Shown here: piece after piece, positions 1,540 through 63,588 of the stretch
Layout: each line of letters opens with the position of its first letter
How positions within the stretch are numbered: position 1 is the stretch's first letter
Origin: a virus
Lineage: Duplodnaviria; Caudoviricetes
Direction: 5' to 3' (one strand)
Length of the DNA: 64,000 nucleotides
Virus record (IMG/VR): IMGVR_UViG_3300012041_000002
Location: 12,210 to 76,209 of that record
Notes under the pieces: generated by a model
What the model saw: the letters and a program-made list of their open reading frames with translations, nothing else
What the model was told of the DNA's origin: nothing
Database searches by the model: none
Translations under genes and position numbers: made by a program

Positions 1540-2247
1540 ATGCTAAAAAAGCCCATTCTGCGCGGGAGGTTATCTCGCGCCGTTGAGAGAACTGGAAATT
1601 CCAAACTAGGTGACGCCGCGGCCACCTATGTATCTAAAATCACCTGTCCTGTAGAATGCCCTTTGCTGAACAATGGCTGTTACGCACAGGGTGGACGGGT
1701 AGCCCTACAAACCCGAGAACTGAACTCCGACACCGAAGGTTACACACCCAAAGATGCGGCCATCGAAGAAGCTGGCTTTATCCGAACGTTGGCGGCGCTT
1801 ACTCGTCGCCCCCTGCGGTTACATGTTGATGGTGACTCACCCACAGATGAGTGCGCCAGTATCGTCGGCGAAGCTGCCGAGGAGTATCACGGCTGGGTTT
1901 GGACATATACACACGCATGGAGGCGTGTGAAGCGAATAAGTTGGAGGAAGAAAGTATCGGTTCTGGCTTCATGTGAGAACATGGGCCAGGTTGAGAAGGC
2001 CCACAAGCGCGGCTATGGAGCAGCTATAGTAGTGCCTGACTTTCCCAACGGTAAAAAAGCGTGGAAAGAGGGTGATTTCACCCTCATACCATGCCCGAAT
2101 ATGTCGGACAAAACCATCACCTGCACCGACTGCCGGCTATGCTTCAACGATACCGGGCTGCACGAACGCAAAGCTGTGATTGCGTTCAAGGTGCATGGTA
2201 ATCGCAAGAAGCGAGCAATTGAAGTGATACAGGAGGCATTCAAATGA
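1540..2247 (+). CDS. Gp88-like / degenerate radical-SAM-like Cys-rich phage protein
   Basis: TCPVECPLLNNGCYA (CxxxC..CY), RLHVDGD, WTYTH, SCE, CP..TCTDCRLC, AFKVHG motifs typical of this phage family. Confidence 0.65.
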   Translation: MLKKPILRGRLSRAVERTGNSKLGDAAATYVSKITCPVECPLLNNGCYAQGGRVALQTRELNSDTEGYTPKDAAIEEAGFIRTLAALTRRPLRLHVDGDSPTDECASIVGEAAEEYHGWVWTYTHAWRRVKRISWRKKVSVLASCENMGQVEKAHKRGYGAAIVVPDFPNGKKAWKEGDFTLIPCPNMSDKTITCTDCRLCFNDTGLHERKAVIAFKVHGNRKKRAIEVIQEAFK

Positions 2248-2471
2248 GCAACACAGAATACGTAGAGGTTAGTCACTTCACCCCCAACCATACCATACAG
2301 GTGAACTGCCTCGGTGGGTTGGTTGAGATACGAATAGAACAAACCGTCACTGGCCGCAGAGTAGTAATCATAAACCTCATAGACGACTATAGCTACTCAA
2401 TCCTTCCTGTGTGGGAAGTATGCGCGGGGGGAACGAAACTGAGGATTGACAACATTCTGGATTATGACTGA
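2244..2471 (+). CDS. hypothetical protein
   Basis: ATGA overlap with the upstream gene, GGAGG RBS. Confidence 0.6.
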   Translation: MSNTEYVEVSHFTPNHTIQVNCLGGLVEIRIEQTVTGRRVVIINLIDDYSYSILPVWEVCAGGTKLRIDNILDYD

Positions 2472-2483
2472 GAGGAGTGGTAT

Positions 2484-2762
2484 ATGGATAGGCTAATTTT
2501 GGAAGCTGGTGTTTTGAAGCGCATCCACGTCAACAAGCACGTCATAGCCTCAAATCGCAAGCACGGTACCCAGGAGCCGGTGTACACCACCAAGTGTAAG
2601 GGCAAGACTTACATCAGTGAGTCTGTACACATAGAAGGCCCCTCGAAGGCAATCTATACCCCGGAAAAGCCACTGTCCTGTGGAGCAGTGGCCTACATAA
2701 CCACTGTGGGGGCAGTCTGCCTCATCAATGTGAAGGTTAAGGAAAAAGTATGCTCACTGTAG
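2484..2762 (+). CDS. conserved phage hypothetical protein
   Basis: KRIHVNKHVI..N.K...EPV...GPS..IY.P.KPLSCGA motif, recognisable from many phage genomes; AGGAG RBS. Confidence 0.75.
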   Translation: MDRLILEAGVLKRIHVNKHVIASNRKHGTQEPVYTTKCKGKTYISESVHIEGPSKAIYTPEKPLSCGAVAYITTVGAVCLINVKVKEKVCSL

Positions 2763-3088
2763 ATAATCTTACGCACACACCATACCCAACACGCAGCCGG
2801 TACATCAACAGCTTCACCTACTTGCAGGGTGTCCTCGAGCAGAAACGAAACTTCATTTGCACGTTCAGAGTGGATGAGCAAAGCCTGGGTGCATGGGGGA
2901 TGGTGCGTATCTACTTCTTGCACGATGAAGCTCCTGTAGAGATTACCGAGCATGTTGCCAACATTCTGGACTACGGCTGCTGTGGTGAGGGCATATTCGT
3001 GTCTCCCCAGCATAGGTATTCCATACCGGGAATGGTGGGTAGACTCCTGTTCGACAATGTGAGCAAATTCTATGCAGCCTGGCTGTGA
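2750..3088 (+). CDS. hypothetical protein
   Basis: ORF track; coupled to neighbours. Confidence 0.6.
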   Translation: MLTVDNLTHTPYPTRSRYINSFTYLQGVLEQKRNFICTFRVDEQSLGAWGMVRIYFLHDEAPVEITEHVANILDYGCCGEGIFVSPQHRYSIPGMVGRLLFDNVSKFYAAWL

Positions 3089-3115
3089 TAAGCAGTCAAG
3101 GGTAAGGAGTGAGGG

Positions 3116-3415
3116 ATGGGGAGCAAGAAATCGAAAACTCAGGTGTACCTGGGCTGCAAAGTGTTCTTCATAGAGATGCCATCGAACGGTACAAAACATG
3201 GTATAAGGCTCATCAGCAACGAGGAGAAGTTCTGGGACTTGCTAACTTACGACGAAGCGTTCTATGAGCCGGAGGGCCCACTGGTAAACGGACTTTATGT
3301 AGTGAAGGTGTACCCAGAAATCTCCGATGAGTACGCCATCAAACATATACGTAAGTGCATCAAGAAGGCCGGGCTAACCCCGATGGGCCTGATTGGCACG
3401 AGTGGTAAGGAGTAG
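3116..3415 (+). CDS. hypothetical protein
   Basis: AAGGAG/GAGG RBS. Confidence 0.65.
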   Translation: MGSKKSKTQVYLGCKVFFIEMPSNGTKHGIRLISNEEKFWDLLTYDEAFYEPEGPLVNGLYVVKVYPEISDEYAIKHIRKCIKKAGLTPMGLIGTSGKE

Positions 3416-3417
3416 AT

Positions 3418-3630
3418 ATGGATACGAAGCTGGAAGAGTTGAAGGCACTGCTCGACACCTTTCGAGGGTGTGATGCTAGTGCCGTATGTGCTTTCCTGCC
3501 CTACGAAAGTAGCTACAAGAAGATGTCCAAGAGGACAGCTCGCTTCTATCGCCTGATAAACGAGCTGATGCTCGTCATGCGTGACGATGGGCGGCCTTAT
3601 TACATATTCGAGGAGGACGAAGATGCCTAA
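3418..3630 (+). CDS. hypothetical protein
   Basis: AAGGAG RBS; fills the gap exactly. Confidence 0.65.
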   Translation: MDTKLEELKALLDTFRGCDASAVCAFLPYESSYKKMSKRTARFYRLINELMLVMRDDGRPYYIFEEDEDA

Positions 3631-3931
3631 AATAGGAAAGTACGTGCTCAAGAGTGACGACTACAATGATTATTCCCTTGTGGGGAGTTCAGTGTGGATA
3701 AGTGTTGACAATATCAGCGTTTACATACGTCGCCGGTTGGGGGATAGTGGGGTGTATGTTGAATTGATGCCTCGTGGGTATGAGGCTAACGTTGATGGCA
3801 TCCTGAATGAAGCCTCGGCTTCGTCCGAGGACGCGCAGCGATACATAGACAGGAAAGTGCTAGAAGAGGAAGCTGCTCGTGAGGAAATTGAGCTGGCGGA
3901 AGCTGCTCGAGAGAAGGCCGAAGATGCCTAA
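3623..3931 (+). CDS. hypothetical protein
   Basis: GAGGAGG RBS, ATGCCTAA overlap (MPKIGK...). Confidence 0.65.
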   Translation: MPKIGKYVLKSDDYNDYSLVGSSVWISVDNISVYIRRRLGDSGVYVELMPRGYEANVDGILNEASASSEDAQRYIDRKVLEEEAAREEIELAEAAREKAEDA

Positions 3932-4247
3932 ATATAACGTCCATATATACACCATCGTGCGTGTGAAGGTGTGCGGTGTAGAGGCCGAGTCGCCGGTGGA
4001 AGCCATTGAAGAAGCCAGAAAGAAACCCCACTACTACGACTTGTTCGACTATATACCAAACCTGAAACAGTATGGTGTGCGTGAGGCGGGGTGGGGTGCG
4101 AAGCATGACGGCTATCTGGTGGACGAAGAGGGTGACGAGGAGTATGAGAACTCCAAGTATTACAAGGACATCGGCGGCAACCCCGTAGAGGAGGTAGTGC
4201 CAACCTATGACGAACTCATCGAAGCTGACGGTACGCAGGCGCCGTAG
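3924..4247 (+). CDS. small acidic protein, DpnD/PcfM-like
   Basis: ATGCCTAA overlap; KYNVHIY...VEAESPVEAIEEA pattern like 952-1212. Confidence 0.55.
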   Translation: MPKYNVHIYTIVRVKVCGVEAESPVEAIEEARKKPHYYDLFDYIPNLKQYGVREAGWGAKHDGYLVDEEGDEEYENSKYYKDIGGNPVEEVVPTYDELIEADGTQAP

Positions 4248-4473
4248 GCTAAACTCGGCCAACATACGTGTGTACAGGACTAATGATGCCGGTACCGGGT
4301 TTCGTTACGAAGCTCAGGATAGTGCCGGAAAGCTGATTGGGGGTTGTGCGGAAACCGCACTCTCTGGCAGTGAGGGTAGCAGGCGCTCGGCTCTTATGGC
4401 TGTTGTGCGGTGCGTGGAGGATACCGGAAGGTTTGACAGGGTTTCCCTGCCCACCGAGCTTACAGAACTCTAG
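4207..4473 (+). CDS. hypothetical protein (start uncertain)
   Basis: ORF track; fills the gap before the 4481 promoter. Confidence 0.45.
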   Translation: MTNSSKLTVRRRRRLNSANIRVYRTNDAGTGFRYEAQDSAGKLIGGCAETALSGSEGSRRSALMAVVRCVEDTGRFDRVSLPTELTEL

Positions 4474-4480
4474 CATAACG

Positions 4481-4504
4481 CTCAAATATTTGATATAATT
4501 TGAG
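4481..4504 (+). promoter_or_regulatory. extended -10 promoter (TGnTATAAT 4491-4499) overlapped by a palindromic operator candidate
   Basis: CTCAAATATTTGATATAATTTGAG: internal palindrome TCAAATATTTGA plus outer CTCAAAT/ATTTGAG arms. Confidence 0.55.
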
Positions 4505-4524
4505 TGACACTCAAAGGAGGTAGG

Positions 4525-4857
4525 ATGTCTGATTACTTGTTTACAAGACAGTTCTTTGGTTACGCAGACACCGACAAGAAGCGTACCGTAGAGGATAGGT
4601 TGCAAGAGGCGATGCTCAGGTATACGGAAAAGTACGGCAACCAGCCCGATATGATAGTGGTGAACGCATCGGACGTCGAGCAACTTGTTGCGGAGATGCG
4701 CAATAAGCCTTTCTTGGTAGAGGGGCAGCCACCTGCCGAGGCACCCCTTGATGCCATGGCCGAGGTTGGTAAGTTCTGCGGAGTGGGTGTCTACACCCGG
4801 CCATACATACGCCCCGGCCACTTTTGGCTGGGTATCCATGAGGAGAAAGTAGCATGA
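4525..4857 (+). CDS. hypothetical protein
   Basis: AAAGGAGG RBS, ATG 4525 (MSDYLF...). Confidence 0.7.
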   Translation: MSDYLFTRQFFGYADTDKKRTVEDRLQEAMLRYTEKYGNQPDMIVVNASDVEQLVAEMRNKPFLVEGQPPAEAPLDAMAEVGKFCGVGVYTRPYIRPGHFWLGIHEEKVA

Positions 4858-5060
4858 GTTGGGACGACATAGACGACGATAATTACTCAGACGGTATGAC
4901 ACCCCCACACTACAATGCCGGCAACGCCGGCTGGATACCACTCGACGATGATAGGAACTTTGACAGCTACTGCACATGTGGATGCCAATGTGAGCAGAAA
5001 GTTGAAGATGAGGGAAGGTGTGAGGACTGCCGCAAGGGTAACCACGTAGAGGCTTGTTGA
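4854..5060 (+). CDS. small Cys-rich (zinc-binding) protein
   Basis: CTCGCQC...CEDC..GNH; ATGA overlap. Confidence 0.6.
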   Translation: MSWDDIDDDNYSDGMTPPHYNAGNAGWIPLDDDRNFDSYCTCGCQCEQKVEDEGRCEDCRKGNHVEAC

Positions 5061-5278
5061 TAATGTGTGCCAAACCGTGGAGTGAGGCAGCGCACCTCAC
5101 TCGCCTGGACAAGCATATCAGCAAATGCTTCGATATGAACACCCCGGCCTCGAAGAGCAGTTCAGAACGTTTCCGTAAATGGTACGAGAAACGTAGCCAG
5201 GAGCCGGGATTTGTCGAAGAGTTCAAGGAATACAAGCGCAACAAGATGCGCGAGTATCGAACAAAAAGGAGAAAGTAA
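5054..5278 (+). CDS. small basic helical protein
   Basis: C-terminal FRKWYEKR...YKRNKMREYRTKRRK. Confidence 0.5.
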   Translation: MLIMCAKPWSEAAHLTRLDKHISKCFDMNTPASKSSSERFRKWYEKRSQEPGFVEEFKEYKRNKMREYRTKRRK

Positions 5279-6024
5279 TGACTAGCTTTGCGATACCAGT
5301 ACAACGCGGCTGTGGGAGCCGCCAGAAGGGGGGCGTTTACTTCGAGACTGCCCATGGCCCCGGAGGAAAGCCTGTGGAGTTCTTCCTGATAGACTCTCCC
5401 CTGCCGGTGCCCGCGGAACTGAACCTCTCTTCCATAGGGGTGCAGCTCGTGGAGTTCAACGGTGTCTACCACCTGATAGATGTCGTGGGCAAGGAGTATT
5501 ACCCGAACGTGGCCGATTTTGTAGAGGAGGTGCGCAGGTTTGGGGTGTCTCGCCGGCTACCTTCTTCGCTCGACTTTTCGAAGATTACTCCCGAAACCAA
5601 CCTTTATGCAGTGCATGACAGGGCCATAGTCAAAAACACCGGTGACTGGTTTGAGTATCCGGGCAACGAGTCTCCTGTCTGCCCCAAGGGGCTGGAGAAC
5701 CACCCTCGAGGCGTGGAGTGCTGCGCCTGGGTGTGGTGGAATGATGTGGAAGGTGGGCACACACCCTCGCTGGCCGACTCCCTATTCGGCCCGGAAGAGT
5801 TGACAGACGTGTATGATTTGGAAAAAACCCGCATAGTGCGGGCTATGCCCTCGTTCACCTACCGGGCACACTCTCGCCCGGAGAAGATTACCCCCAACTA
5901 TGAGAGGGGCTTCTTCGCACGCTTCCCCATTGGTAGGCTGGTGGTGGTGAAGGGTGAGGATAACACCGAAAAGTTAGACAAGGTGCGCAAGGCACACACG
6001 CTGGTGGAGGAAGTGGATGAGTAA
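5278..6024 (+). CDS. conserved hypothetical protein
   Basis: 248 aa, TAATG coupling, well-ordered N-terminal domain (RGCG.R.KGG.Y...D.VG..YYP.VADF.EE.RR.G.SRR). Confidence 0.8.
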   Translation: MTSFAIPVQRGCGSRQKGGVYFETAHGPGGKPVEFFLIDSPLPVPAELNLSSIGVQLVEFNGVYHLIDVVGKEYYPNVADFVEEVRRFGVSRRLPSSLDFSKITPETNLYAVHDRAIVKNTGDWFEYPGNESPVCPKGLENHPRGVECCAWVWWNDVEGGHTPSLADSLFGPEELTDVYDLEKTRIVRAMPSFTYRAHSRPEKITPNYERGFFARFPIGRLVVVKGEDNTEKLDKVRKAHTLVEEVDE

Positions 6025-6526
6025 ATCTACCACAGCGCAACGTATCGCCACCCTGGAAAATGCTCTGAAAGAAACCCTGTGGATGGCGAGGAGATATGCC
6101 GATGGCCGCGCTACTTACGCGGCCAGCTCCTACAATTCCGTAGTTCGACAGTTACTGGAACTGGGGGTGAGCCTGCCAAAAACGGACGGCACACTTTGGG
6201 CGCGTGATGGGATGGGGCGCAGGTATGATGGGCTGACTGACGCCGAGGCCGAGGAAGGCGCCAAACCACCAGATTGGCGTGAGGTGCTCAACACCCAGAT
6301 ACAGCTAAGGTTGCAGGAGAGGGTGTGGGAATTAGAGGGGGCGCTCGATAGGGTTGATTGGAGAGATGTGGGCCCCATAAACAACGATATGTGCAGGGAG
6401 TGTGAGGCCACCATTGACGCCGAAACCCAAGAATTAGCTGACGGGAGCGGGTGGGATTACATAGTCCACAAAGCCGACTGCCCTATAGCCGTACTAAAAG
6501 GAGTGAAAAGTGAGAAAACTATCTGA
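6017..6526 (+). CDS. hypothetical protein
   Basis: GGAGG RBS; C-terminal C..C...H..DC Zn-like motif. Confidence 0.7.
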   Translation: MSKSTTAQRIATLENALKETLWMARRYADGRATYAASSYNSVVRQLLELGVSLPKTDGTLWARDGMGRRYDGLTDAEAEEGAKPPDWREVLNTQIQLRLQERVWELEGALDRVDWRDVGPINNDMCRECEATIDAETQELADGSGWDYIVHKADCPIAVLKGVKSEKTI

Positions 6527-6890
6527 ACTGATACATGAGGGTAGCCAGTGCCGCCCGCAAGGCTTCAATGGCTTCGTACAACTAGCCGGGGAGAATGACG
6601 AAATACGCACCTGTGCCATCGGCGCCGCTATGGAGGCTGTTGCTTCTGCTCCAACCCGTGATGGTTGTTCCTATTCATTCCATAGTTGGGAATCGAAAGG
6701 GTATACAGGGTTACGCGAAGCACTTGGGATAGACATAGAGGACGATGATGAAGCCAGCATACCCTACCCACCAGAGTTAGGTTACAAGAGAGAACGCGAC
6801 TGTATTCTGGAGGTTGTCGCTGTTCTGAACGATGAATATAAGTGGACGCGAGAGAAGATAGCCGATTACCTCGAAAGTATAGGATATTAG
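6510..6890 (+). CDS. DUF6197-like phage protein
   Basis: CAIGA ... LNDEYKWTREKIADYLE pattern; AAGGAG RBS. Confidence 0.55.
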   Translation: MRKLSELIHEGSQCRPQGFNGFVQLAGENDEIRTCAIGAAMEAVASAPTRDGCSYSFHSWESKGYTGLREALGIDIEDDDEASIPYPPELGYKRERDCILEVVAVLNDEYKWTREKIADYLESIGY

Positions 6891-6898
6891 GGGGAACC

Positions 6899-7126
6899 AT
6901 GAAACTCGCTATGTCACCGGAAGAGTTTAGCGCGTGGCTTGAGAGGGAAAACTCCTGGCAATTCCCGGCCAAACCATACACAGATTGGCAGTGGTGGCTC
7001 GCAAGGGTTGATACACTAGCCAACCAGGAGATTACCCAACAGACAACCCTCAAAGAATTATCAGAAATCCATGATGCACGTTACATACTTGAACGCTTCG
7101 CAGCGTTCTCCGAAAAGCCCACTTAG
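6899..7126 (+). CDS. hypothetical protein
   Basis: AGGGGG RBS, ATG 6899. Confidence 0.65.
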   Translation: MKLAMSPEEFSAWLERENSWQFPAKPYTDWQWWLARVDTLANQEITQQTTLKELSEIHDARYILERFAAFSEKPT

Positions 7127-7135
7127 GAGGAACAA

Positions 7136-7969
7136 ATGAACACCGTAATCGAAGAAACAACCCAACTCAAACTAACCCCGGACACCCCTTACACACCTGA
7201 ACTACGCAGCATCTTCCTGACGCTGCTGCCACCAGACGAGGAGATATTTAGCAAGGAGCCGTCGCCTTCATTCGTGCGCAGCGTCGAGGCTTTTGGGGTG
7301 CTGCAACCTATCGGAGTGGTGCCCAGCACCGTATCCCCAGGTGGGTATGAGATAGGATTCGGCAGGCGCCGCGTCAAGTCTGCCCGCAAGGTAGGTATGC
7401 TGGAGATACCTGCTCTGGTGTTTCCCGAGGGCACACCGCTGCATATCCTGGCCGAGATAGAGAACAACCAGCGCTCTACTGACAAAACTCAGGACTTGCG
7501 CTTCATTTCTCAAATGGTTCGTGACGGGGCAGACGAGAAGGAAATCTCCAACATCACTGGCATGGCGATACCCACTATACGTAAGATGCTGCGCTTCACT
7601 TCGCTGGTGCCGGAGCTGCAAGAAGCCTTTATGGACGGGCGCATGGCCCTGACTGCCGCTGAGAGGGCTGTGAGACTGCCCAAGAGCAGCCAGCAGGAGC
7701 TGGTGGGGGTGCTGGAACAGGCGGGCAAACTCACCGAAAAGGATGTCCACACAGCCAACAAGGTATCCTCGGCAGCAGCTCTGCAATCCGTAAGTAGCCT
7801 GTTCGATGCAGCCCCGGAAGAGGTGCCCTGGTACATGCGCGTCAAGGACGACATCACCCGAGCCCTCGGCGCCATACACCCGGCACACCCACGCCGGGCG
7901 GAGTGGGAGAGAAAGTTGGAGGAGCTGGTGGGGGAAATCTACGCAGACGGAGCAAAGTACAATGCCTAA
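7136..7969 (+). CDS. ParB/RepB/Spo0J-family protein
   Basis: SVEAFGVLQPIGV..GYEIGFGRRRVKSA..EIENNQR (ParB N-terminal GxRRxxA and ENxQR), then HTH EKEISNITGMAIPTIRKML. Confidence 0.85.
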   Translation: MNTVIEETTQLKLTPDTPYTPELRSIFLTLLPPDEEIFSKEPSPSFVRSVEAFGVLQPIGVVPSTVSPGGYEIGFGRRRVKSARKVGMLEIPALVFPEGTPLHILAEIENNQRSTDKTQDLRFISQMVRDGADEKEISNITGMAIPTIRKMLRFTSLVPELQEAFMDGRMALTAAERAVRLPKSSQQELVGVLEQAGKLTEKDVHTANKVSSAAALQSVSSLFDAAPEEVPWYMRVKDDITRALGAIHPAHPRRAEWERKLEELVGEIYADGAKYNA

Positions 7970-8465
7970 ACATATGTACGAAGTATACAATTTGCTAGGG
8001 GTTGTCGAGATAAACGTAGCTCTGGCCTGGGCGCTTATCGAGTCTGACGGCAGAGAGCCCAGCGGGTACGCCGATGTGCAGGAGCAGGGGCTCAAAATGT
8101 TCGGGCCACTGGTGGAGGAAGAGGAAGCTCCCAAATACATAAACCTGTTCTCTTACTATGTGGACAAAGAAAAAGCCCTCACCGACGAATCCGTAGATGT
8201 CACAGTGCCGGTGATTCTCGCGGATATTGGGGAGTACGGCACCCCTATTATCGATGGTGTCCATCGCATGTATAAGGCGTATGCCACCGGGGTAGAAACT
8301 ATACCGGTGCATAAACTGTCTGCGATAGAAACCTACTGTCTCATGGGAGAGGGCAGGAGCCTTCTCTTCCACAATGATGGGCAAACACGCAACAATAGTC
8401 GCATAGAAGAGATAAAGCAACTCCAGAAGAAGCTCAAGCCGCTGAAAGGAGCGATAGCAGCATGA
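7962..8465 (+). CDS. ParB/Sulfiredoxin-like N-terminal domain protein
   Basis: PVILA..IIDGVHRMYKA...ETIPV motif (DGxHR). Confidence 0.7.
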   Translation: MPKHMYEVYNLLGVVEINVALAWALIESDGREPSGYADVQEQGLKMFGPLVEEEEAPKYINLFSYYVDKEKALTDESVDVTVPVILADIGEYGTPIIDGVHRMYKAYATGVETIPVHKLSAIETYCLMGEGRSLLFHNDGQTRNNSRIEEIKQLQKKLKPLKGAIAA

Positions 8466-8803
8466 TGAAAGCATCAGAACTGTTACGAGAAACACGAAAA
8501 CTCATCGAAAAACCCGAAAACTGGACAACCGGCGCCTGGGCAAAGGACGCCAAAGGCAAGAATACACACGAAACCAGCCCAAACGCGGTTTGTTGGTGTG
8601 CCTTCGGGGCGTTCCTGAAAGCATCGGATGCGGCTTATAACTCTGGCGAGTATAGAGAGCAACTTTACTTCGCTGCGGAGGCTCTAACCAAGTGTGCTGG
8701 TGGTAGTGTCATAACCTTCAACGATTTGCACACCCACGAAGAGGTACTGGCCCTGTTTGACACCACTATAGCACAGCTGGAAGCTGTCGAGGCAGCAGCA
8801 TGA
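8462..8803 (+). CDS. DUF6197-like phage protein
   Basis: WTTGAWAKD..CWCAFGA..ITFND..THEEVLALFD. Confidence 0.65.
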   Translation: MMKASELLRETRKLIEKPENWTTGAWAKDAKGKNTHETSPNAVCWCAFGAFLKASDAAYNSGEYREQLYFAAEALTKCAGGSVITFNDLHTHEEVLALFDTTIAQLEAVEAAA

Positions 8804-9204
8804 GCCTCATACTTCCACCGCACGTCGAAGAAGCACGACGTAAGCAGTCTCTGGCAGGCACCTACACCCCTCTTCCCTTACCCTCAGAAGTCAAGGAGGT
8901 ACTCCTGCCCAACGGAGTGAAACTCCGACAGAGGGAAATAGTGCGAATGTCCAACGGAGAGCCGGGGGTGTGGTATGTAGCTTCACGTACCGGCCTGCGT
9001 GTACTGGCAACCACCCGTGTACAGGAGGAATCCAGGATACTGCTAGTCTCCCTGTCCTACAAGAATAAGCCACCCTCTCTGGCAGACGTCTGGAATGTAC
9101 GGGCAGGTTTCTACCCTAACGAAGTGCCGGTAGTTATATATGTCGGCGATAAATTTGCCGACGATGCCGAGCATAATGTGGTGGAGTTGAGGCAGGCCGG
9201 GTAA
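8800..9204 (+). CDS. hypothetical protein (DUF7694-like)
   Basis: GLRVLAT..VSLSYKNKPPSLADV..VRAGFY..HNVVEL pattern. Confidence 0.45.
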   Translation: MSLILPPHVEEARRKQSLAGTYTPLPLPSEVKEVLLPNGVKLRQREIVRMSNGEPGVWYVASRTGLRVLATTRVQEESRILLVSLSYKNKPPSLADVWNVRAGFYPNEVPVVIYVGDKFADDAEHNVVELRQAG

Positions 9205-9818
9205 TGAGCAAAATTTACCTGGATAGCTTCGATATAGAGGTAGAAAAGGCAGTGCTCATAGATTCTATTGCGAAGAAAAACGACGCCTTCTGGCGTGAAA
9301 ATACGTATATCGCAGCCGAGGTGAGTGCTGCTCTGGCTAATAATCAGTTTGTGTCTCTGGAGAGGGCAGAAAGGTTCCTGCACCGTATGGTACACAAGTA
9401 TCGTAGGGAAATAGCGGTGGGGTTCAATAGTCGGGGAGAGTATGCGTTCAACATTACGGGTGGGGAGTATTCGATAGAAATCCCGGACTCCATGATGGAG
9501 GAGATAAAGGAGGGAGGGGTGCTTACGCATTCTCACCCGGACGATGAGCCACTGAGCTGGAACGATATTTACTCCTCGGCAATTTGGGGGCTGTGGGAAA
9601 TCAGAGCCGTTACACCGTGCGGTACGGTTCACACTATATCGGCTCCCACCAATCTTGGTGGGAAGATTAGGGCTTTAGAAAAATTTGTGGAGGAACATGG
9701 TTGCAGTATGTACACCACCGAACGAATCCTAACAATCTTCGCCCAGGAACATAATCTGCATTACACAACATTACACATAGGAGGGGGTATTGAACACGAA
9801 TCTGGAAACCACGGCTAG
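9204..9818 (+). CDS. JAB/MPN-like metal-binding protein
   Basis: E..VGF (REIAVGF) ... THSHPDDEPLSWND = HxH-x6-S-x2-D JAMM-like motif. Confidence 0.6.
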   Translation: MSKIYLDSFDIEVEKAVLIDSIAKKNDAFWRENTYIAAEVSAALANNQFVSLERAERFLHRMVHKYRREIAVGFNSRGEYAFNITGGEYSIEIPDSMMEEIKEGGVLTHSHPDDEPLSWNDIYSSAIWGLWEIRAVTPCGTVHTISAPTNLGGKIRALEKFVEEHGCSMYTTERILTIFAQEHNLHYTTLHIGGGIEHESGNHG

Positions 9819-10191
9819 TCACATGGAAGCCAGCTACAATCTTGGGTATGAAACCGCGAAGAAGGATTATGAGTATGGCCCACCCATCTTCAACAACTAC
9901 TCGTGGTTTATTCGCAGGAAGATGACACTTTTACCAGTTCCCACAAGCTACGACGATTTTTGCCGTGGCTACACACAGTTTATCCGAGAGCAAACCACTT
10001 ACCTTGCTTACAAAGATGATACAGGGGAGGTTTACGTATTCCATGACATAGCAACCGACACCTTCGGGTACGACATTATATTCACCCCGCAGAACCGGAC
10101 TGCCTACTCAGCAGGGCAAACTACGGGGTTCAACACAACCTACTTCGCCGAACTGGAAGGTAGGAAAATTCTAGCATTAGGAGCAAGCTAA
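9790..10191 (+). CDS. hypothetical protein
   Basis: GGAGG RBS before TTG; fills the gap. Confidence 0.6.
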   Translation: MNTNLETTASHMEASYNLGYETAKKDYEYGPPIFNNYSWFIRRKMTLLPVPTSYDDFCRGYTQFIREQTTYLAYKDDTGEVYVFHDIATDTFGYDIIFTPQNRTAYSAGQTTGFNTTYFAELEGRKILALGAS

Positions 10192-10192
10192 C

Positions 10193-10828
10193 ATGGCAGA
10201 TACATTTGGAGCCACCACAGAAGCAACAATCAACCCGAACGCCTTGAAACCTCCCGTACCGGCCCTGTACGGGGGCCGGGGGCTACGCCCGCTGGCGGAG
10301 ATACAAGAGGACTTGAAACGCCCCATACCGGCAGAGCTACTCTTCTGGAAACCCGGTAAGGGTGGCAGCAAAATGCTACTCTACTGGCCCTGGTGGGTTG
10401 GTGTCCGGGCATTCGACAAGATGGCCCCCGGGTGGAGTTTGGAACTCTCCTCACCGGTAATCTCCTCCGACGGGCACGTTTCGATAGTCGCCAAAGTGTT
10501 CATACCCTGTCTGGAAAATTCCTACCCGGGGTTCTTCAAATCCTCGAGCGGGGGTGATTACGAGGGAACCAAAGAGGCCCAGCAGGTGCAGGGCAGCAGC
10601 GGAACGTACACCAAGGAAGCCACTTTTGGCAAGGGATTTGACCCGGTTCTGGACGCCGAACGGCAGGCAATGTGCCGGGCTATGTCCAACTGGGGGTTCG
10701 GCTTTGATTTGTACGTACCGGAGAAGCTCAGGTTACACAAGTGGGTTGAGCCACCCCCGCCAGATGATGAGCCGTGGAAATACCCCAATCGCCAGCAGGG
10801 GGGGAGCTACAAGGGTAAGGGGCGTTAG
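10193..10828 (+). CDS. Rad52/Rad22-family single-strand annealing protein
   Basis: LKRPIP..LL.Y.PW...RAFD..APGWS.E...AERQAMCRAMSNWGFGFDLY (Rad52 signature A.KRA...G.G..LY). Confidence 0.8.
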   Translation: MADTFGATTEATINPNALKPPVPALYGGRGLRPLAEIQEDLKRPIPAELLFWKPGKGGSKMLLYWPWWVGVRAFDKMAPGWSLELSSPVISSDGHVSIVAKVFIPCLENSYPGFFKSSSGGDYEGTKEAQQVQGSSGTYTKEATFGKGFDPVLDAERQAMCRAMSNWGFGFDLYVPEKLRLHKWVEPPPPDDEPWKYPNRQQGGSYKGKGR

Positions 10829-11089
10829 ATGGCTACCAAAACCATCACAGTATGTGACTTTTGTGGAGAGGTGTTGGAGGAAAAGCGGGCGGTGATTGAG
10901 GTAAAGTCTACCGAAATTGTGCTCAATCCGCACAATGGGATAGCGGATAATATGTACGAGGAGCTGGATATGTGTATGTATTGTGTAGAGTATGGGCTAG
11001 AACACCTTCTCAAACAAATCAATTACCAGCAGACAGTCGAATGGAGAACTTCCCTGAAAAATAAATGCGACGATAGAATCTACTCCTAA
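10829..11089 (+). CDS. small zinc-ribbon protein
   Basis: TVCDFCG...DMCMYC. Confidence 0.7.
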   Translation: MATKTITVCDFCGEVLEEKRAVIEVKSTEIVLNPHNGIADNMYEELDMCMYCVEYGLEHLLKQINYQQTVEWRTSLKNKCDDRIYS

Positions 11090-11111
11090 CCACCAATATC
11101 CATTACTTAGT

Positions 11112-11140
11112 ACCCCCGAGCGCATTGCTCGGGGGTTTTT
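11112..11140 (+). terminator. intrinsic terminator ending the early gene run
   Basis: ACCCCCGAGC-GCATT-GCTCGGGGGT stem followed by TTTT. Confidence 0.85.
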
Positions 11141-11218
11141 GTATCTCTGAAAGGGGGTGGTTTATGAAAGGGTAACCTCGTCGGCAGTATCAGCAACACT
11201 AACATAAAGGAGAAAATC

Positions 11219-11854
11219 GTGCAGTTCAAATCGACAGCCAGAAAGTTCCTGGCATTAATCCTGGGTGTGTCTGCCCTGGCCGGTATCGCGCACCCGTATA
11301 GTGCGCAAGCAGAGGCAGAGCAGCCCCAGTCTCCGGGCTTTACCACCGAAACAAAGCCTATAGACGACCCGAACATTATGCGCCTCACAGTACAATTCAA
11401 CTTGCAGGGGTTACCCCAGGGGATTATTTGTGACTCCAGGCGCAGCACAAGGTTCGTAGCCATTCAGTTTACTCTGAACGGTAACATTTACGATTGGTAC
11501 CCTCAAACCGACTGTTTGGGTAGGGCCGAGGTTGACTTACCCAATGGATACGGGCAGTTCGAATTATGGGCCAAGGCGGATTCGTGGTTGGCGGCTCGTG
11601 GCTCATTCACATGGCCCGGCCCAGGCTATAACCTCGTTATAATCAGTGACCCGCTAGATGGTGGGGATGCGAACGCCGACAACATCATAAACATTGTTGA
11701 CTTCAATGTTTATGTGAACACGTTTGGGTGTTCCTGGGTGGATTCATGTTACCAGCTCTTCGCCGATATTGACAGAAACCACTTCATCAGTGTGACGGAC
11801 TTCAACATCTTCCAGGGAAACCATGGAAATGCTGGCGCACCACCGATACACTAA
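11219..11854 (+). CDS. secreted protein with C-terminal type I dockerin-like domain
   Basis: Signal peptide (K/R, hydrophobic core, AQA); duplicated EF-hand-like GDANADNIINIVDF..F / ADIDRNHFISVTDF..F. Confidence 0.8.
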   Translation: MQFKSTARKFLALILGVSALAGIAHPYSAQAEAEQPQSPGFTTETKPIDDPNIMRLTVQFNLQGLPQGIICDSRRSTRFVAIQFTLNGNIYDWYPQTDCLGRAEVDLPNGYGQFELWAKADSWLAARGSFTWPGPGYNLVIISDPLDGGDANADNIINIVDFNVYVNTFGCSWVDSCYQLFADIDRNHFISVTDFNIFQGNHGNAGAPPIH

Positions 11855-11860
11855 CACGTT

Positions 11861-11890
11861 TTGATAGTCTCGTAGCTCATGTGGTACAAT
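11861..11890 (+). promoter_or_regulatory. sigma70-type promoter
   Basis: TTGATA-18-TACAAT with TGn extension; CTCATGTGGTA recurs at 12117-12127 in front of TATACT. Confidence 0.6.
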
Positions 11891-11918
11891 TATCCTTGAA
11901 TCCCTTGGAGGTATACAC

Positions 11919-12101
11919 ATGAGCTACAAACTAACCATATCCGCGGCACTGGTGTTGGTGCTGGTAACTGTATTGGCCGGGTGCAATATCCAACCCCCAC
12001 TCACAGTATCTAGTAGGTTGGTACCTGCGCGTTATACGTATATGGTTCCGACACCGGGGCCGACAATTCCAGAGGCAATAGAAACAGGGGAGCCCAAATA
12101 A
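11919..12101 (+). CDS. small lipoprotein
   Basis: Hydrophobic stretch ending in lipobox LAGC; GGAGG RBS. Confidence 0.75.
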   Translation: MSYKLTISAALVLVLVTVLAGCNIQPPLTVSSRLVPARYTYMVPTPGPTIPEAIETGEPK

Positions 12102-20134: not shown

Positions 20135-21114
20135 GGACGCATTTGAAAGATGGTGCTGAATGCCTTTGGCTGCACACCTTCCAGCGGTTGGAACTCCCCC
20201 CTAAAGTTCACATAACCTGCCTTGACAAGTTCGGAAATGTCCTTGCCGTATGTCGGGCTCCATGTAACCCGGTACGACTCGATACCAATGTTACGCATGA
20301 CTCTCCACAGCCGCCTGCTGGCCTCGCGGCCCGCGGCGTCGGCGTCATAGCAGATATAAACACGCATCTCTGTCAGCTCCCCCAATATTGGCAGAGCTGC
20401 CTTCGACAGCAAGTTTCGACACCCGGAAGTGCAGGAGATGGCAACCCCACCTGCCTGCACCATAGCCAGAGCATCAAACTCCCCCTCGACGAGGGCAACC
20501 TTCTTGCACCCATTTGCCAGCAGGGGCCACCTCACCCCCGGCGGTATGTACCACCTTGGTGGGCTTCCACACCCCTCTGCGTGCCAGTATTTGTTTTGAG
20601 TGTTACGCCAGTTGTCCTCGTCTACCCTGTACCGTATGTTCACCAGCTTCCCGTTATAGTCAAACACCGGTATGGTGTACGCGAAGCCTGTCCACCCTAT
20701 ACGTGCTTCCCGAATGGTTTCGGGAAGCAGCCCATACTTGTTACATAGCCAACCAATCTTGTTTGGGTGTTCGTCCAATAATTTAGCAAAGCTATCAATG
20801 GTTGATGGGTTTAGGGTAAGGGGTGAGGGGAGGGGAGCGTCTGGCCCGCTCTCACCGTTGCACAACGCGGAGGCTATCTCCAGCGCATCTATCTTGCTAC
20901 ATTCACGCACCCTCATGATGTGCTCGAGGGCCTTCTCGCGGAATCCGCACACGAAGCAGTAGGTGTTGCTCGGGTATACGGCCAGGTTTGGCTTGTTCTT
21001 GTCTGTGTGCGCGGGGCACCTGACGAACACGGGGTTGCCGCGTTCCCCCGGGTACAAGCCACGCAAGTCCACACGCCTGGCTAAGTCAGGCACGAGATAC
21101 TGTGTAGCAACCAT
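20131..21114 (-). CDS. DNA primase (CHC2 zinc finger + TOPRIM)
   Basis: RCPAHTD...YCFVCG (CHC2), LVEGEFDALA, CYDADAAG; AAGGAG RBS before ATG 21114. Confidence 0.92.
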   Translation of the reverse strand: MVATQYLVPDLARRVDLRGLYPGERGNPVFVRCPAHTDKNKPNLAVYPSNTYCFVCGFREKALEHIMRVRECSKIDALEIASALCNGESGPDAPLPSPLTLNPSTIDSFAKLLDEHPNKIGWLCNKYGLLPETIREARIGWTGFAYTIPVFDYNGKLVNIRYRVDEDNWRNTQNKYWHAEGCGSPPRWYIPPGVRWPLLANGCKKVALVEGEFDALAMVQAGGVAISCTSGCRNLLSKAALPILGELTEMRVYICYDADAAGREASRRLWRVMRNIGIESYRVTWSPTYGKDISELVKAGYVNFRGEFQPLEGVQPKAFSTIFQMRP

Positions 21115-21177
21115 ACTCTCACTCCTTTCTGGCTCCAGTCGAGGTGGCCTCGGTTTTGACAGCGACTGACAAAATGG

Positions 21178-21206
21178 AGTATAACCGAAGGATATTTGAT
21201 TGTCAA
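21178..21206 (-). promoter_or_regulatory. leftward sigma70 promoter (primase)
   Basis: TTGACA-17-TATACT. Confidence 0.8.
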
Positions 21207-21232
21207 TACTTTTGCCAATTTTGGTTTGGCTA

Positions 21233-21261
21233 TTGACAAAGTTGGCAGAATGTTTTATCAT
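21233..21261 (+). promoter_or_regulatory. rightward sigma70 promoter (dnaB operon)
   Basis: TTGACA-17-TATCAT. Confidence 0.75.
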
Positions 21262-21519
21262 CAGTCAAAGGGGTTGGGGTTGGAGCTGGAAAGAGGCAAT
21301 ACCTCTAACCTTGAAGAATATATTACTCTAATCCCTTTTCAGGGATTAGAACTAAAAGGAGTAGCCTATTAGTATTGCAGAATGTCTTATTAGTTAGAGA
21401 GTAAACACACCTAGGTTGCAGAGTTAAAGGGGTGAGAGTATAGGACATACGTGCTATGTGTATAGATACCCTCCCCATCCCTCACACCTTTACCTACTAC
21501 GTTACGTAAGGAGAGTTTT

Positions 21520-61304: not shown

Positions 61305-62090
61305 ATGTTCGAAATAGATTCAACTACCTACACCACCAACAATTACTGGAGCCCGGAGAATTTGCGTGGGTTGCGCGAAACCAGCCACATCATGATACAC
61401 ACCACGATGGGGCGGGAGGCGAGCGATATACGCGAGCTGACTGAGGATAGAGGCCGCAACTCCAAGAGCATCAACTATTATGTTGCTCGACGCCAAAAGA
61501 TATTCCAGATAGTCGCCCCTGAACTTGCCTCCTTCCACTGCTACACAGCCCCCGGCGCCAAGAGAGATGGCCCATTCCGTCGCACTCTTGGGTGGGGTAA
61601 CGAGAATTTTAAGACTATCGGCATAGAGTTCGAGGCTCGTGAGAACGAGCCGCTCACCGAATGGCAGATTTCCGCTGGCAAGTGGCTGGTATCCTACCTG
61701 TGCGGGCGGTTCAACATACCGGTGGACAGGAACCGGATACTCGGGCACTACGAGATAAATGTCCAGAAATTTGACCCGCAACCGTCACAGGGCTGGAACT
61801 GGGACGACTTCATGGCCGGGGTTCGTGCGTATTCCGCACAGAGCGATGGCCGAAAGTATAAGTTCTTCCCCGAGACAGGCTACAGCATCTCCGGTGGCTT
61901 TTACGATTTGTGGCGATTTGACATCGACGGTTTCCCCAAAACCTTCGAAGAGGCAGAGGCGCAACCAGACGGCTCGGTGCTGACGGTGCAGTATTTCGAG
62001 AATACTCGCATGGAGTGGAAACCGGGGATGGAGGCTCGTAGGGGTGCGGTGGGGCGAATGTATCTCAAAGCCATAGGGCGAATCAACTAA
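61305..62090 (+). CDS. N-acetylmuramoyl-L-alanine amidase (Amidase_2) endolysin with Chloroflexi-type cell-wall repeat
   Basis: IMIHTT, SINYYV, SFHC, IGIEF, ILGHYEI..KFDP; C-terminal FFPETGYSISGGF..W...GFP.T.E..TVQYFE..RMEW.P. Confidence 0.9.
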   Translation: MFEIDSTTYTTNNYWSPENLRGLRETSHIMIHTTMGREASDIRELTEDRGRNSKSINYYVARRQKIFQIVAPELASFHCYTAPGAKRDGPFRRTLGWGNENFKTIGIEFEARENEPLTEWQISAGKWLVSYLCGRFNIPVDRNRILGHYEINVQKFDPQPSQGWNWDDFMAGVRAYSAQSDGRKYKFFPETGYSISGGFYDLWRFDIDGFPKTFEEAEAQPDGSVLTVQYFENTRMEWKPGMEARRGAVGRMYLKAIGRIN

Positions 62091-62098
62091 GGAGTAAA

Positions 62099-62530
62099 AT
62101 GAACGAACCAGTCATAACGGATGCGGTTAGTGCTGCTGTGCAGCTTCTGATACTAACCCTCATACCGATTTTCATAGCCGGGGCCAAGGTGCTCATCATG
62201 GACGTGTTCCCTTCCTGGGGCAAGAAGCTGAAAGCTAACCTGTCCGAGCAGCAATGGTACATGCTCGAGCAGCTGGCCGGTGTGGCTGTCAAGTACGCCG
62301 AGCAGCTCGCCAAGAATGAAGATGTGCGCAACGCCGGGCAGTATAAGTACGAGCAGGCCAAAGCCCTCATAGACGAAACCCTCGCCAAGAATAAGTTAAA
62401 GTTTACTACCCGAGAGATTGAGGCAGCGATTGAAGCAGCCGTGCGCGATACGTTCCCCAAGGAGGAAGCTAAAACTCAGCACCCTCTAGAGGAGTATAGT
62501 GAATCGGCAGCCGGAGAATTGCCTAAATAA
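62099..62530 (+). CDS. holin, LL-H family-like
   Basis: One N-terminal TM helix, then AV..AEQL...G..KY..A...L....IEA.IEAAV. Confidence 0.85.
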   Translation: MNEPVITDAVSAAVQLLILTLIPIFIAGAKVLIMDVFPSWGKKLKANLSEQQWYMLEQLAGVAVKYAEQLAKNEDVRNAGQYKYEQAKALIDETLAKNKLKFTTREIEAAIEAAVRDTFPKEEAKTQHPLEEYSESAAGELPK

Positions 62531-62546
62531 TAGCCCATTTGGGCTA

Positions 62547-62575
62547 TTGCAGTCCTGGAACATATGTGCTATACT
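62547..62575 (+). promoter_or_regulatory. sigma70 promoter for a candidate small RNA
   Basis: TTGCAG-17-TATACT with TGn. Confidence 0.65.
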
Positions 62576-62581
62576 TATTCT

Positions 62582-62666
62582 TGATAGGGTTATGTCAAGA
62601 ATGTGTTCACTCTCATTATTTTCTCTCCTTGCAGGCGCACCCTTTCGGGGGTGCGCCTCTTTTTTT
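62582..62666 (+). ncRNA. candidate ~85-nt antisense small RNA
   Basis: Own promoter, no + strand ORF, pyrimidine-rich anti-SD seed (TTTTCTCTCCTT), ends in the terminator below. Confidence 0.5.
62633..62666 (+). terminator. intrinsic terminator
   Basis: AGGCGCACCC-TTTCGG-GGGTGCGCCT + C-T7. Confidence 0.85.
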
Positions 62667-62710
62667 GTCCAACTTTACAGGCAGTAAATCTTACAGTCTT
62701 ATGTAAATTA

Positions 62711-62740
62711 TTGCCTTTAGATAATTATCTTTGGTATAAT
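62711..62740 (+). promoter_or_regulatory. sigma70 promoter with a palindrome in the spacer
   Basis: TTGCCT-18-TATAAT with TGn; AGATAATTATCT at 62719-62730. Confidence 0.65.
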
Positions 62741-62777: not shown

Positions 62778-63047
62778 ATGGAGGGCGAAGAATTGGGTAG
62801 ACAGCGATTGGAACAACCACCCCGAGTAGCCGGCAGCACCATTTCACACGGTGTTATTGACTACCCACCATTGATTGAGGAGAGCCCCGTACTGCGCCAG
62901 GTTGAGCGCCTAGAATATCTTCGGATGCAGAGGGATTTGTATACTGAGGCGTTTGAAACCGAACAGGAAGTGTTGGAGAATATGCGTTCTGTTTCCGCTG
63001 TGTGCAAGCCAATGCCCGCATTCAAATACTTGGAGCTTATTGTATAG
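62778..63047 (+). CDS. hypothetical protein
   Basis: 89-aa ORF behind its own promoter; weak RBS. Confidence 0.5.
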   Translation: MEGEELGRQRLEQPPRVAGSTISHGVIDYPPLIEESPVLRQVERLEYLRMQRDLYTEAFETEQEVLENMRSVSAVCKPMPAFKYLELIV

Positions 63048-63211
63048 TCTACCGTCAGGCGCCGATGGTATAACTGTTGAGGGTAGACGACAACAGCCCT
63101 TTACACAAACCATTTTATTCAGGTTGTCGGGTGAACAGCCCAACAAATGGCCCCAAGCATCATAGTCTGCGATACCAGCAACGCCTGACGGCAGACTACA
63201 GCACAAACGCA
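63045..63211 (-). ncRNA. candidate structured non-coding RNA (~170 nt)
   Basis: 17-bp closing stem (63182-63198 with 63045-63061), 6-bp inner stem, two hairpins, four G-U pairs only on the - strand, own promoter. Confidence 0.6.
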
Positions 63212-63216
63212 TCCCA

Positions 63217-63245
63217 AGTGTACATAATAAAAAAGAACCCGTCAA
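63217..63245 (-). promoter_or_regulatory. sigma70 promoter embedded in the terminator hairpin
   Basis: TTGACG-17-TACACT on the - strand. Confidence 0.7.
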
Positions 63246-63267
63246 GATTCTTGACGGGTTCTTTTTT
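63229..63267. terminator. bidirectional intrinsic terminator
   Basis: AAAAAAGAACCCGTCAAG-ATT-CTTGACGGGTTCTTTTTT perfect 18-bp inverted repeat. Confidence 0.92.
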
Positions 63268-63279
63268 GTATTTTAGGAA

Positions 63280-63588
63280 CTAATACCCGGGCATCATCTC
63301 CCCGGAGGGCTTGGATTGGCGGCGAAGCATATCCTCGGCCATCATGGTGGTGGGTTGCTTATGGGGCCTCTTACGTAGAGTGTTGAGCAACTCCCCACTC
63401 TTACCCTCCGAAGCCGCTTCAAGAAGCTCCTCAACCTCAACAACCGTCACCCCGCGCAGTTTTACCTTGGGTTGTGAGCCTGCTACAACCGTAAAGGCCC
63501 CGTACTCGGGTTCAGCAATTATTTCCACGCTTTGCCCCCACTTGGAGATTACGCTCAGTTTCTTGAAATTTGTTAGATTTATCTGCAC
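63280..63588 (-). CDS. hypothetical protein
   Basis: AAAGGAG RBS; ends just before the terminator. Confidence 0.7.
   Translation of the reverse strand: MQINLTNFKKLSVISKWGQSVEIIAEPEYGAFTVVAGSQPKVKLRGVTVVEVEELLEAASEGKSGELLNTLRKRPHKQPTTMMAEDMLRRQSKPSGEMMPGY

Follow-up and report, generated by a model that had tools for sequence, protein, structure and literature searches.

We analysed a 64,000-nucleotide (nt) window of a virus of the class Caudoviricetes, covering bases 12210-76209 of the 76,209-base-pair (bp) record IMGVR_UViG_3300012041_000002, and found near its right end an element (63043-63200 of the window) that folds on the - strand into one exceptionally stable, strand-specific structure. 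The structure is real and specific to the - strand, and a structured - strand RNA is a plausible product of this locus. We tentatively read the element, with less than even confidence, as the structured 5' domain of a - strand cis-antisense RNA that would regulate a convergent accessory gene of 84 amino acids (aa) on the + strand. The fold, its strand specificity, its genome-wide rank and the geometry of the transcription units were computed; promoter activity, pairing with the mRNA and the regulatory outcome are what we infer.

The minimum-energy structure of the - strand is a three-way junction of about 160 nt that contains 66 pairs, 13 of them G-U, and consists of a closing helix (P1) and two branches (P2 and P3). 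P1 is a 28-bp helix between a 5' arm (63200-63172) and a 3' arm (63043-63071); its pairs include five G-U, and a single C/U mismatch interrupts it. The TAG stop codon (63045-63047) that ends the + strand 84-aa gene falls within the 3' arm. An inverted-repeat search recovered the P1 arms as 27-nt repeats that are 85% complementary. This is the clearest long-range inverted repeat in the window, as the sole longer pair reported (21113-21441, 34 nt) is only 74% complementary. P2 (63104-63171) starts with a 10-bp base helix (63171-63162 with 63104-63113, three G-U pairs), continues through a weak A/U-rich middle and ends in an 8-bp apical stem (63146-63139 with 63131-63124) that is capped by the loop CUGUUCA. 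P3 (63072-63098) is a hairpin of 8 bp, two of them G-U, with an 11-nt loop. Both P2 and P3 abut P1 without intervening unpaired bases, and the junction has a total of five unpaired nt. The 8-nt motif GGGCUGUU is duplicated, with one copy at the P2 apex and one in P3, and these are two of only six copies in the 64 kb. An initial annotation, made by a reader of the letters, had described on this strand a 17-bp closing stem (63198-63182 with 63061-63045), an inner 6-bp stem (63177-63172 with 63071-63066), two branch hairpins and four G-U pairs. All of these are present, with both stems lying within P1 and the branch hairpins (63146-63139 with 63131-63124, and 63098-63091 with 63079-63072) exactly where they had been placed. 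The fold is, however, larger than was described, with P1 extended to 28 bp and with the P2 base helix and the near-closed junction added.

When folded as RNA, the - strand reaches -79.9 kcal/mol versus -53.2 +/- 4.0 kcal/mol for dinucleotide shuffles (z -6.67), with none of 200 shuffles as good, while the + strand reaches -57.4 kcal/mol (z -4.48). A GC-corrected scan of 1690 windows of 170 nt across the 76-kb genome, each folded on both strands, ranked the - strand window 63038-63207 first (z -4.82 versus -3.46 for the runner-up), and the + strand of the same segment fell outside the eight best windows of that strand. The 100-nt interior folded without P1 has a z of -2.27 on the - strand (4 of 200 shuffles) and -0.15 on the + strand. 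P1 has six non-Watson-Crick positions, of which five are G-U when read on the - strand and none when read on the + strand. The fold is thus specific to the - strand, because what are wobble pairs on this strand turn into A-C mismatches on the other. A covariance model built on the - strand fold likewise scores 187 bits on the - strand and 39 bits on the + strand. The multi-stem - strand structure of the initial annotation therefore stands as a real and strand-specific fold, with a promoter-like site that is plausibly placed.

These values bear on two other explanations of the element. The first is that the + strand is the functional one, with the element serving as the 3' untranslated region (UTR) of the 84-aa mRNA, where a ribosome at the TAG codon would open the closing helix, the right arm would form the octamer hairpin described below and mRNA stability would change. 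The stop codon is indeed the first triplet of the left arm, the + strand transcript certainly contains the element, and a ribosome that holds one arm open would give two alternative folds a physical meaning. However, folding on the + strand is weaker by 22 kcal/mol, with an interior no better than shuffles, and every wobble position becomes an A-C mismatch, and we regard this explanation as improbable. The second is that the element is a relic or a fortuitous palindrome, such as a decayed hairpin or a duplication that has been tolerated at a site where two genes converge. Conservation offers no argument to the contrary, and the whole cassette is composed of orphan genes in a single clonal phage population. 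Set against this, no other fold in the genome is as extreme, and several independent features (the G-U pattern, the structured interior, the way in which P2 and P3 abut P1 and the position of the promoter-like site) all point to one strand, which leaves a relic rather unlikely.

Each arm of P1 also has an alternative partner nearby. On the 5' side, the octamer 63198-63191 pairs perfectly with 63170-63163, as initially annotated, giving a hairpin (63163-63198) with a 20-nt loop. A perfect 8-mer partner for the 5' arm was present inside the interior in 274 of 20000 shuffles. On the 3' side, 63088-63078 pairs with 63057-63047 at 10 of 11 positions to give a second hairpin (63047-63088). Both alternative pairings arise because the terminal heptamer GTCTRCC occurs in alternating orientation, as three full copies plus a six-base near-copy at 63165-63170. 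Enforcing the alternative 5' hairpin gives a best fold of -51.1 versus -79.9 kcal/mol, and the ensemble free-energy gap of 27.7 kcal/mol translates into an equilibrium share of about 3e-20 for the alternative state. When chains of increasing length were folded, the 5' hairpin had the lowest energy from about 50 to 100 nt and once more at 130 nt. At 110-120 nt and at 140 nt it gives way transiently to the P2 base helix, and from about 150 nt, when the 3' arm becomes available, P1 takes over. Since the central part of the P1 arm lies in the 20-nt loop of the 5' hairpin, it stays unpaired there and offers the 3' arm a toehold. The claim of two mutually exclusive folds was thus right in that the alternative pairing forms first in short nascent chains, and wrong in regard to bistability. 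Given that the two states are so far from balanced, the 5' hairpin is a co-transcriptional intermediate and not a second functional state, although a kinetic role retains some plausibility because the octamer is not random.

A truly bistable or ligand- or processing-controlled switch, or an RNase P-processed immunity RNA such as P1 C4 or P4 CI, as the initial annotation had suggested, is therefore very improbable. Speaking for a switch are the octamer partner, which is unlikely by chance, the mirror-image alternative for the 3' arm and a high direct-path barrier from the alternative state (about 28 kcal/mol, an upper bound); the vanishing equilibrium share and the toehold, which stands ready for displacement, both speak against it. 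In regards to immunity RNAs, the element resembles P1 C4 and P4 CI in being a small structured RNA of a temperate phage with a closing stem and branch hairpins. It is about twice their size, however, and lacks upstream target repeats and a tRNA-like end for RNase P. Specifically, there is no covariance-model match to C4 in Rfam at E<=10 and no CCA-like 3' end, and complements of the loops occur elsewhere in the genome at chance level.

The folding series also invites comparison with type I toxin mRNAs. In hok and in aapA1/aapA3 of Helicobacter pylori a long-range 5'-3' helix closes the full-length RNA by fold-back (PMC6733600, PMC5416894), and metastable short 5' hairpins form during transcription and are later replaced (PMC6733600). 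The phage element shares the predicted 5'-3' fold-back helix and the transient 5' hairpin. Unlike these mRNAs, its reading frames give a 14-aa or a Cys-rich hydrophilic product without a ribosome-binding site or a membrane-spanning segment, and it contains nothing to be kept from translation. On the - strand there is no open reading frame (ORF) preceded by a Shine-Dalgarno sequence after the structure and no hydrophobic mini-ORF so preceded within it; the latter limits the likeness to one of architecture, and the former argues against a cis-acting leader. A bolder reading takes the element as the first member of a phage RNA class of its own, a promoter-driven three-way junction of about 160 nt with a built-in folding pathway. 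Here each P1 arm would have a local decoy derived from one heptamer, an open form of two hairpins with complementary 20-nt loops would snap shut, and control over an accessory gene or a host factor would lie either in this time window or in the RNA once closed. We hold this to be possible, though on balance doubtful.

We next consider the signals from which a - strand transcript is predicted. A sigma-70-like promoter candidate lies at 63217-63245 on the - strand, with TTGACG (63245-63240), a 17-bp spacer and TACACT (63222-63217), and it matches 9 of 12 consensus positions with a predicted transcript start near 63210. The hexamers and spacing are as the initial annotation had read them, and so is the location of the -35 hexamer inside a terminator hairpin, where it occupies the descending arm of a perfect 19-bp stem. 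Note that the candidate does not count as having an extended -10, because its TG abuts the hexamer. Promoter-like sites of this quality number five in a 1.6-kb region versus 1.7 expected (about one per kb in shuffles). This one is placed 10-12 nt ahead of P1 on the correct strand, and the shuffle rate gives an estimated chance of about 3% for a match in so narrow a slot. This placement is suggestive and would support a promoter, short of proof. A consensus scan found no promoter-like site within 63062-63181.

The hairpin that holds the -35 hexamer (63229-63267) is a bidirectional intrinsic terminator flanked by an A-run and, on the opposite side, a T-run. Terminator halves of Rfam leader models, Thr and His leaders among them, align to it on both strands. 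Judged by its sequence, it is the terminator of both the - strand operon of the 174-aa and 102-aa genes and the + strand 84-aa gene. There is no + strand terminator between the stop codon at 63047 and this hairpin, and no intrinsic terminator on the - strand after P1. P1 itself lacks a trailing U-run, the sequence after it reading UAUACAAUAAG on the - strand and CAGCACAAAC on the + strand, and is therefore not an intrinsic terminator. Further along the - strand, a 7-bp hairpin directly past the holin stop codon (62530-62547) has a U-rich tail (UAUUUA) on the - strand and not on the + strand, and it could stop a long - strand antisense transcript from the element before the lysis genes.

This arrangement underlies the cis-antisense reading. 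Because no terminator precedes the 63229 hairpin, the 3' UTR of the 84-aa mRNA must include the element's exact complement. Activity of the - strand promoter would therefore make the two RNAs complementary over about 165 nt or more, and since the - strand RNA has no terminator after P1 it is probably complementary to the body of the gene as well. In the mechanism that we propose, the - strand transcript would start at the sigma-70-like promoter just past the bidirectional terminator, and its transient 5' hairpin would be displaced once the 3' arm has been synthesised. The compact junction fold would then stabilise the antisense RNA and display the P2 and P3 loops. As these loops would be perfectly complementary to the matching loops of the mRNA 3' UTR, a loop-loop contact could nucleate a long duplex, and cutting of this duplex by a double-strand-specific RNase would lower expression of the 84-aa gene.

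Known cis-encoded antisense RNAs that act through stem-loop contacts and RNase III include ColE1 RNA I/II, R1 CopA/CopT, lambda OOP and the convergent pairs of the bsrG/SR4 type in Bacillus subtilis prophages. The element is like these in that a small RNA driven by a candidate promoter would lie opposite a real gene with full complementarity and several loops for first contact, and in that it sits in the accessory region of a temperate phage. There are also several differences. For example, the 5' part of the antisense RNA would here overlap the 3' UTR of the mRNA, rather than a 5' leader or in a 3'-3' overlap. The hairpins are locked in a 28-bp closing helix and the antisense RNA is without a terminator. 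Finally, the target is a hydrophilic 84-aa orphan and not a membrane toxin or a replication primer.

Several points weigh against the cis-antisense reading. The - strand transcript is predicted from sequence alone, and its promoter is a consensus match only, of a kind that is common in this region and with a -10 hexamer that fits at four of six positions. An antisense role needs neither the 28-bp closing helix nor the near-perfect three-way junction. No pair is backed by covariation because no diverged homologue was found in the collections searched. In addition, G-T pairs stabilise single-stranded DNA as well, for which the fold has a z of -4.88 on the - strand versus -3.76 on the + strand, and the GTCTRCC copies in alternating orientation would also suit transposon ends or sites where a protein binds the DNA. 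Provided that it is transcribed, the RNA would found a new family of phage regulatory RNAs from a little-known lineage, represented by a temperate phage of Antarctic lake mats, and would show cleanly, in a natural RNA other than a toxin mRNA, how a folding pathway can be programmed. It would then be kin to the small structured or antisense RNAs that are already known from temperate phages. At present it stands as a single sequence without found relatives, a well-defined and cheaply testable candidate rather than a discovery.

The position of P1 beside a terminator also recalls retroregulation by lambda sib, in which an RNase III site lies beside a terminator downstream of int and the terminator hairpin itself is extended into the site. 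The likeness is that, in the lysogeny region of a temperate phage, a long helix adjoins an intrinsic terminator, and that transcripts reading through from the 174-aa/102-aa operon would all contain this helix. In contrast to sib, the helix of the element is separate and downstream of an intact, protective terminator hairpin, and the genes upstream are not int.

Searches of RNA families agree with the initial annotation that the element matches no known family, as no Rfam (release 15) hit at gathering thresholds occurs anywhere in the 64-kb window. At E<=10 the only match on the fold proper is a sub-threshold one to mir-57 (15 bits, E 2.5). A few other matches that are very weak or anchored in the terminator (ncr1015, TeloSII_ncR33 and OrzO-P) reach partly into the fold, and every remaining match lies on the adjacent terminator hairpin. 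Rfam models for C4, 6S, Y RNA/YrlA, packaging RNA (pRNA) and small ribozymes do not match the element, and a scan for tRNA and tmRNA found none. The element is like the pRNA of phi29 in that it is a phage-encoded three-way junction with a 5'/3' closing helix and two loops. Unlike pRNA, it belongs to a phage with a 669-aa large terminase and a 76-kb genome, which is not a packaging motor of the phi29 type, and it lacks the Rfam match. It shares with retron msr-msd RNA the inverted repeats (a1/a2) that close the RNA, which is a generic feature, and a retron was rejected because the whole 76-kb genome has no reverse transcriptase match (RVT_1, E<=1). There is also no long ORF downstream of the element on the - strand.

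These family searches also bear on the possibility that the same - strand RNA acts in trans by binding or sequestering a protein, as a decoy or a scaffold, with the pair of GGGCUGUU hairpins as binding sites and P1 as an end-protecting or processing helix. The compact fold, a junction that is almost devoid of unpaired bases and the long closing helix would all be expected of such an RNA, duplicated hairpins would suit a dimer, and the structure is stronger than antisense action needs. Yet no partner can be named, given that the 102-aa and 174-aa neighbours are orphans with poor AlphaFold models (predicted confidence, pLDDT, of 58 and 42, respectively). The missing matches to 6S, Y RNA, pRNA or any other Rfam model also count against this explanation, as does the lack of a defined 3' end with no terminator after P1. 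Overall we consider a role in trans unlikely.

When copies of the element were sought, none was found beyond this phage. The element is single-copy in its own genome, where 11-mer matches to it elsewhere are at chance level, and the exact 17-mer arm has one chance match inside a coding region of IMG/VR and no other copy there. A blastn search of GenBank phages and plasmids with the element returned nothing, the translated element matched no spurious ORF among 5.8 billion proteins, and the covariance model, run on the genome itself and the two nearest IMG/VR records, matched only the element. A pattern of 10+10 arm bases, scanned through genome and metagenome collections, gave only unrelated GC-rich matches among the matches listed; this pattern is too permissive in GC-rich DNA and does not exclude copies elsewhere, and the copy searches leave out the host genome. 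That scan also met a high-copy repeat family in the Myxococcaceae metagenome-assembled genome JBGART01, of about 130-160 bp with long terminal inverted repeats. Of the 128 listed pattern matches, 43 have an arm spacing of 132 bp, and 40 aligned copies are about 80% alike per column. This family resembles miniature transposable elements, and its sequence bears no relation to that of the phage element.

The copy searches are most relevant to an explanation at the level of DNA, namely that the inverted repeats mark a miniature transposable element, a segment inverted by a tyrosine recombinase or accessory sites for a recombinase. Such an origin would account for 27-bp terminal inverted repeats around 100 bp, for an extra copy of the terminal heptamer inside each end (a full copy on the left and the six-base near-copy on the right) and for the convergent intergenic site, a typical landing place, with a tyrosine recombinase gene about 1.5 kb away. 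TA flanks both sides if the element is taken as 63047-63196, although only if the repeat starts at G63047, and as TA is self-complementary it could be part of the repeat itself. An invertible DNA switch flanked by inverted repeats is known from the 154-bp flagellar switch of Clostridioides difficile, and the present element is likewise about 154 bp long, intergenic and bounded by imperfect inverted repeats of 17-27 bp with a tyrosine recombinase nearby. It differs from miniature elements and invertible switches in several respects. Specifically, it is single-copy in the phage and without a further copy in the IMG/VR, GenBank phage, plasmid and translated-protein searches. It has no promoter inside the segment and it occurs in one orientation in six consensus assemblies, with contigs that run through it. 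A strand-specific interior and a one-sided G-U pattern would also be unexpected of such DNA. With the evidence divided in this way, a DNA element is a rather unlikely alternative.

The phage that carries the element is temperate. The ends of its record overlap by 123 bp and the assembly is therefore circular, which places a tyrosine integrase gene (Phage_integrase, E 7e-30) about 1.5 kb from the element across the record junction. The same phage was assembled from five other samples (ENA ERZ27267681/83/85; Logan SRR6448217/247) at 99.99-100% identity, and these contigs are thus without variation. SRR6448217 belongs to a data set from benthic mats of Lake Vanda (Antarctica). No related phage was found in IMG/VR, with the best match to the terminase there at 43% identity over 46 residues, and the phage has 23-26% terminase identity to the nearest cultured phages. 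The distant terminase matches include cyanophages. For the endolysin (61305-62090, + strand), the nearest clusters in a feature-based protein atlas are viral and then bacterial, with Chloroflexota as the commonest phylum, which is a weak hint of the host.

The locus itself is preceded by + strand lysis genes, the last of which code for an Amidase_2 endolysin and a holin. The convergent 84-aa gene (62793-63047, + strand) has a TTG start codon 7-8 nt past GGAGG and the TAG stop codon at 63045-63047, and an alternative ATG at 62778 would make its product 89 aa. Upstream of it, at 62711-62740, is what reads as a strong + strand promoter for this gene, with TTGCCT, an 18-bp spacer and TATAAT, a TG preceding the second hexamer and a match to 10 of 12 consensus positions. 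The codon score of the 84-aa frame is 0.11, where long phage genes score 0.23 +/- 0.14 and antisense frames -0.36, and - strand frames through the element score -0.12 (non-coding). By this measure the 84-aa frame appears to be coding, in contrast to those - strand frames. The predicted product of the 84-aa gene is hydrophilic. From the other side, the - strand genes of 174 aa and 102 aa converge on the 63229-63267 hairpin; the 102-aa gene (63280-63588) adjoins the hairpin and is the last gene of a unit that diverges from the integrase.

Searches with these neighbours returned little beyond the query proteins. IMG/VR held no relatives for the 102-aa, 89-aa and endolysin queries. Among 5.8 billion proteins the 102-aa and 174-aa proteins matched only themselves and one spurious repetitive sequence, and an exhaustive search of 1.8 billion proteins with the 89-aa protein recovered only itself. 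Members of the protein clusters of the neighbouring genes proved to be the same proteins with different start-codon calls. By these sequence searches all three neighbouring genes (84/89, 102 and 174 aa) are orphans.

Additional features were noted elsewhere in this genome. Between the holin and the 84-aa gene is a compact + strand unit (62548-62668), in which an RNA of about 85 nt, without an ORF and with the pyrimidine stretch UUUUCUCUCCUU, is bounded by a promoter (TTGCAG, 17-bp spacer, TATACT) and by a strong terminator (62633-62658) with a T-run behind it. This small RNA (62583-62668) is predicted to pair no better than shuffles do with either the element or the 84-aa gene leader. The early region downstream of the integrase (record bases ~2000-12000) codes for a 154-aa Macro-domain protein (PF01661) and for a run of small paralogous genes, one with a weak DUF6197 match and several with a common CTNG.FG motif. 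Finally, GATC is absent from the whole 76,209-bp record, where about 298 copies are expected from its length, while the frequency of CCWGG is normal and that of GANTC is about half. The absence of GATC suggests that the phage has been strongly selected to escape a restriction system of its host that cuts GATC.

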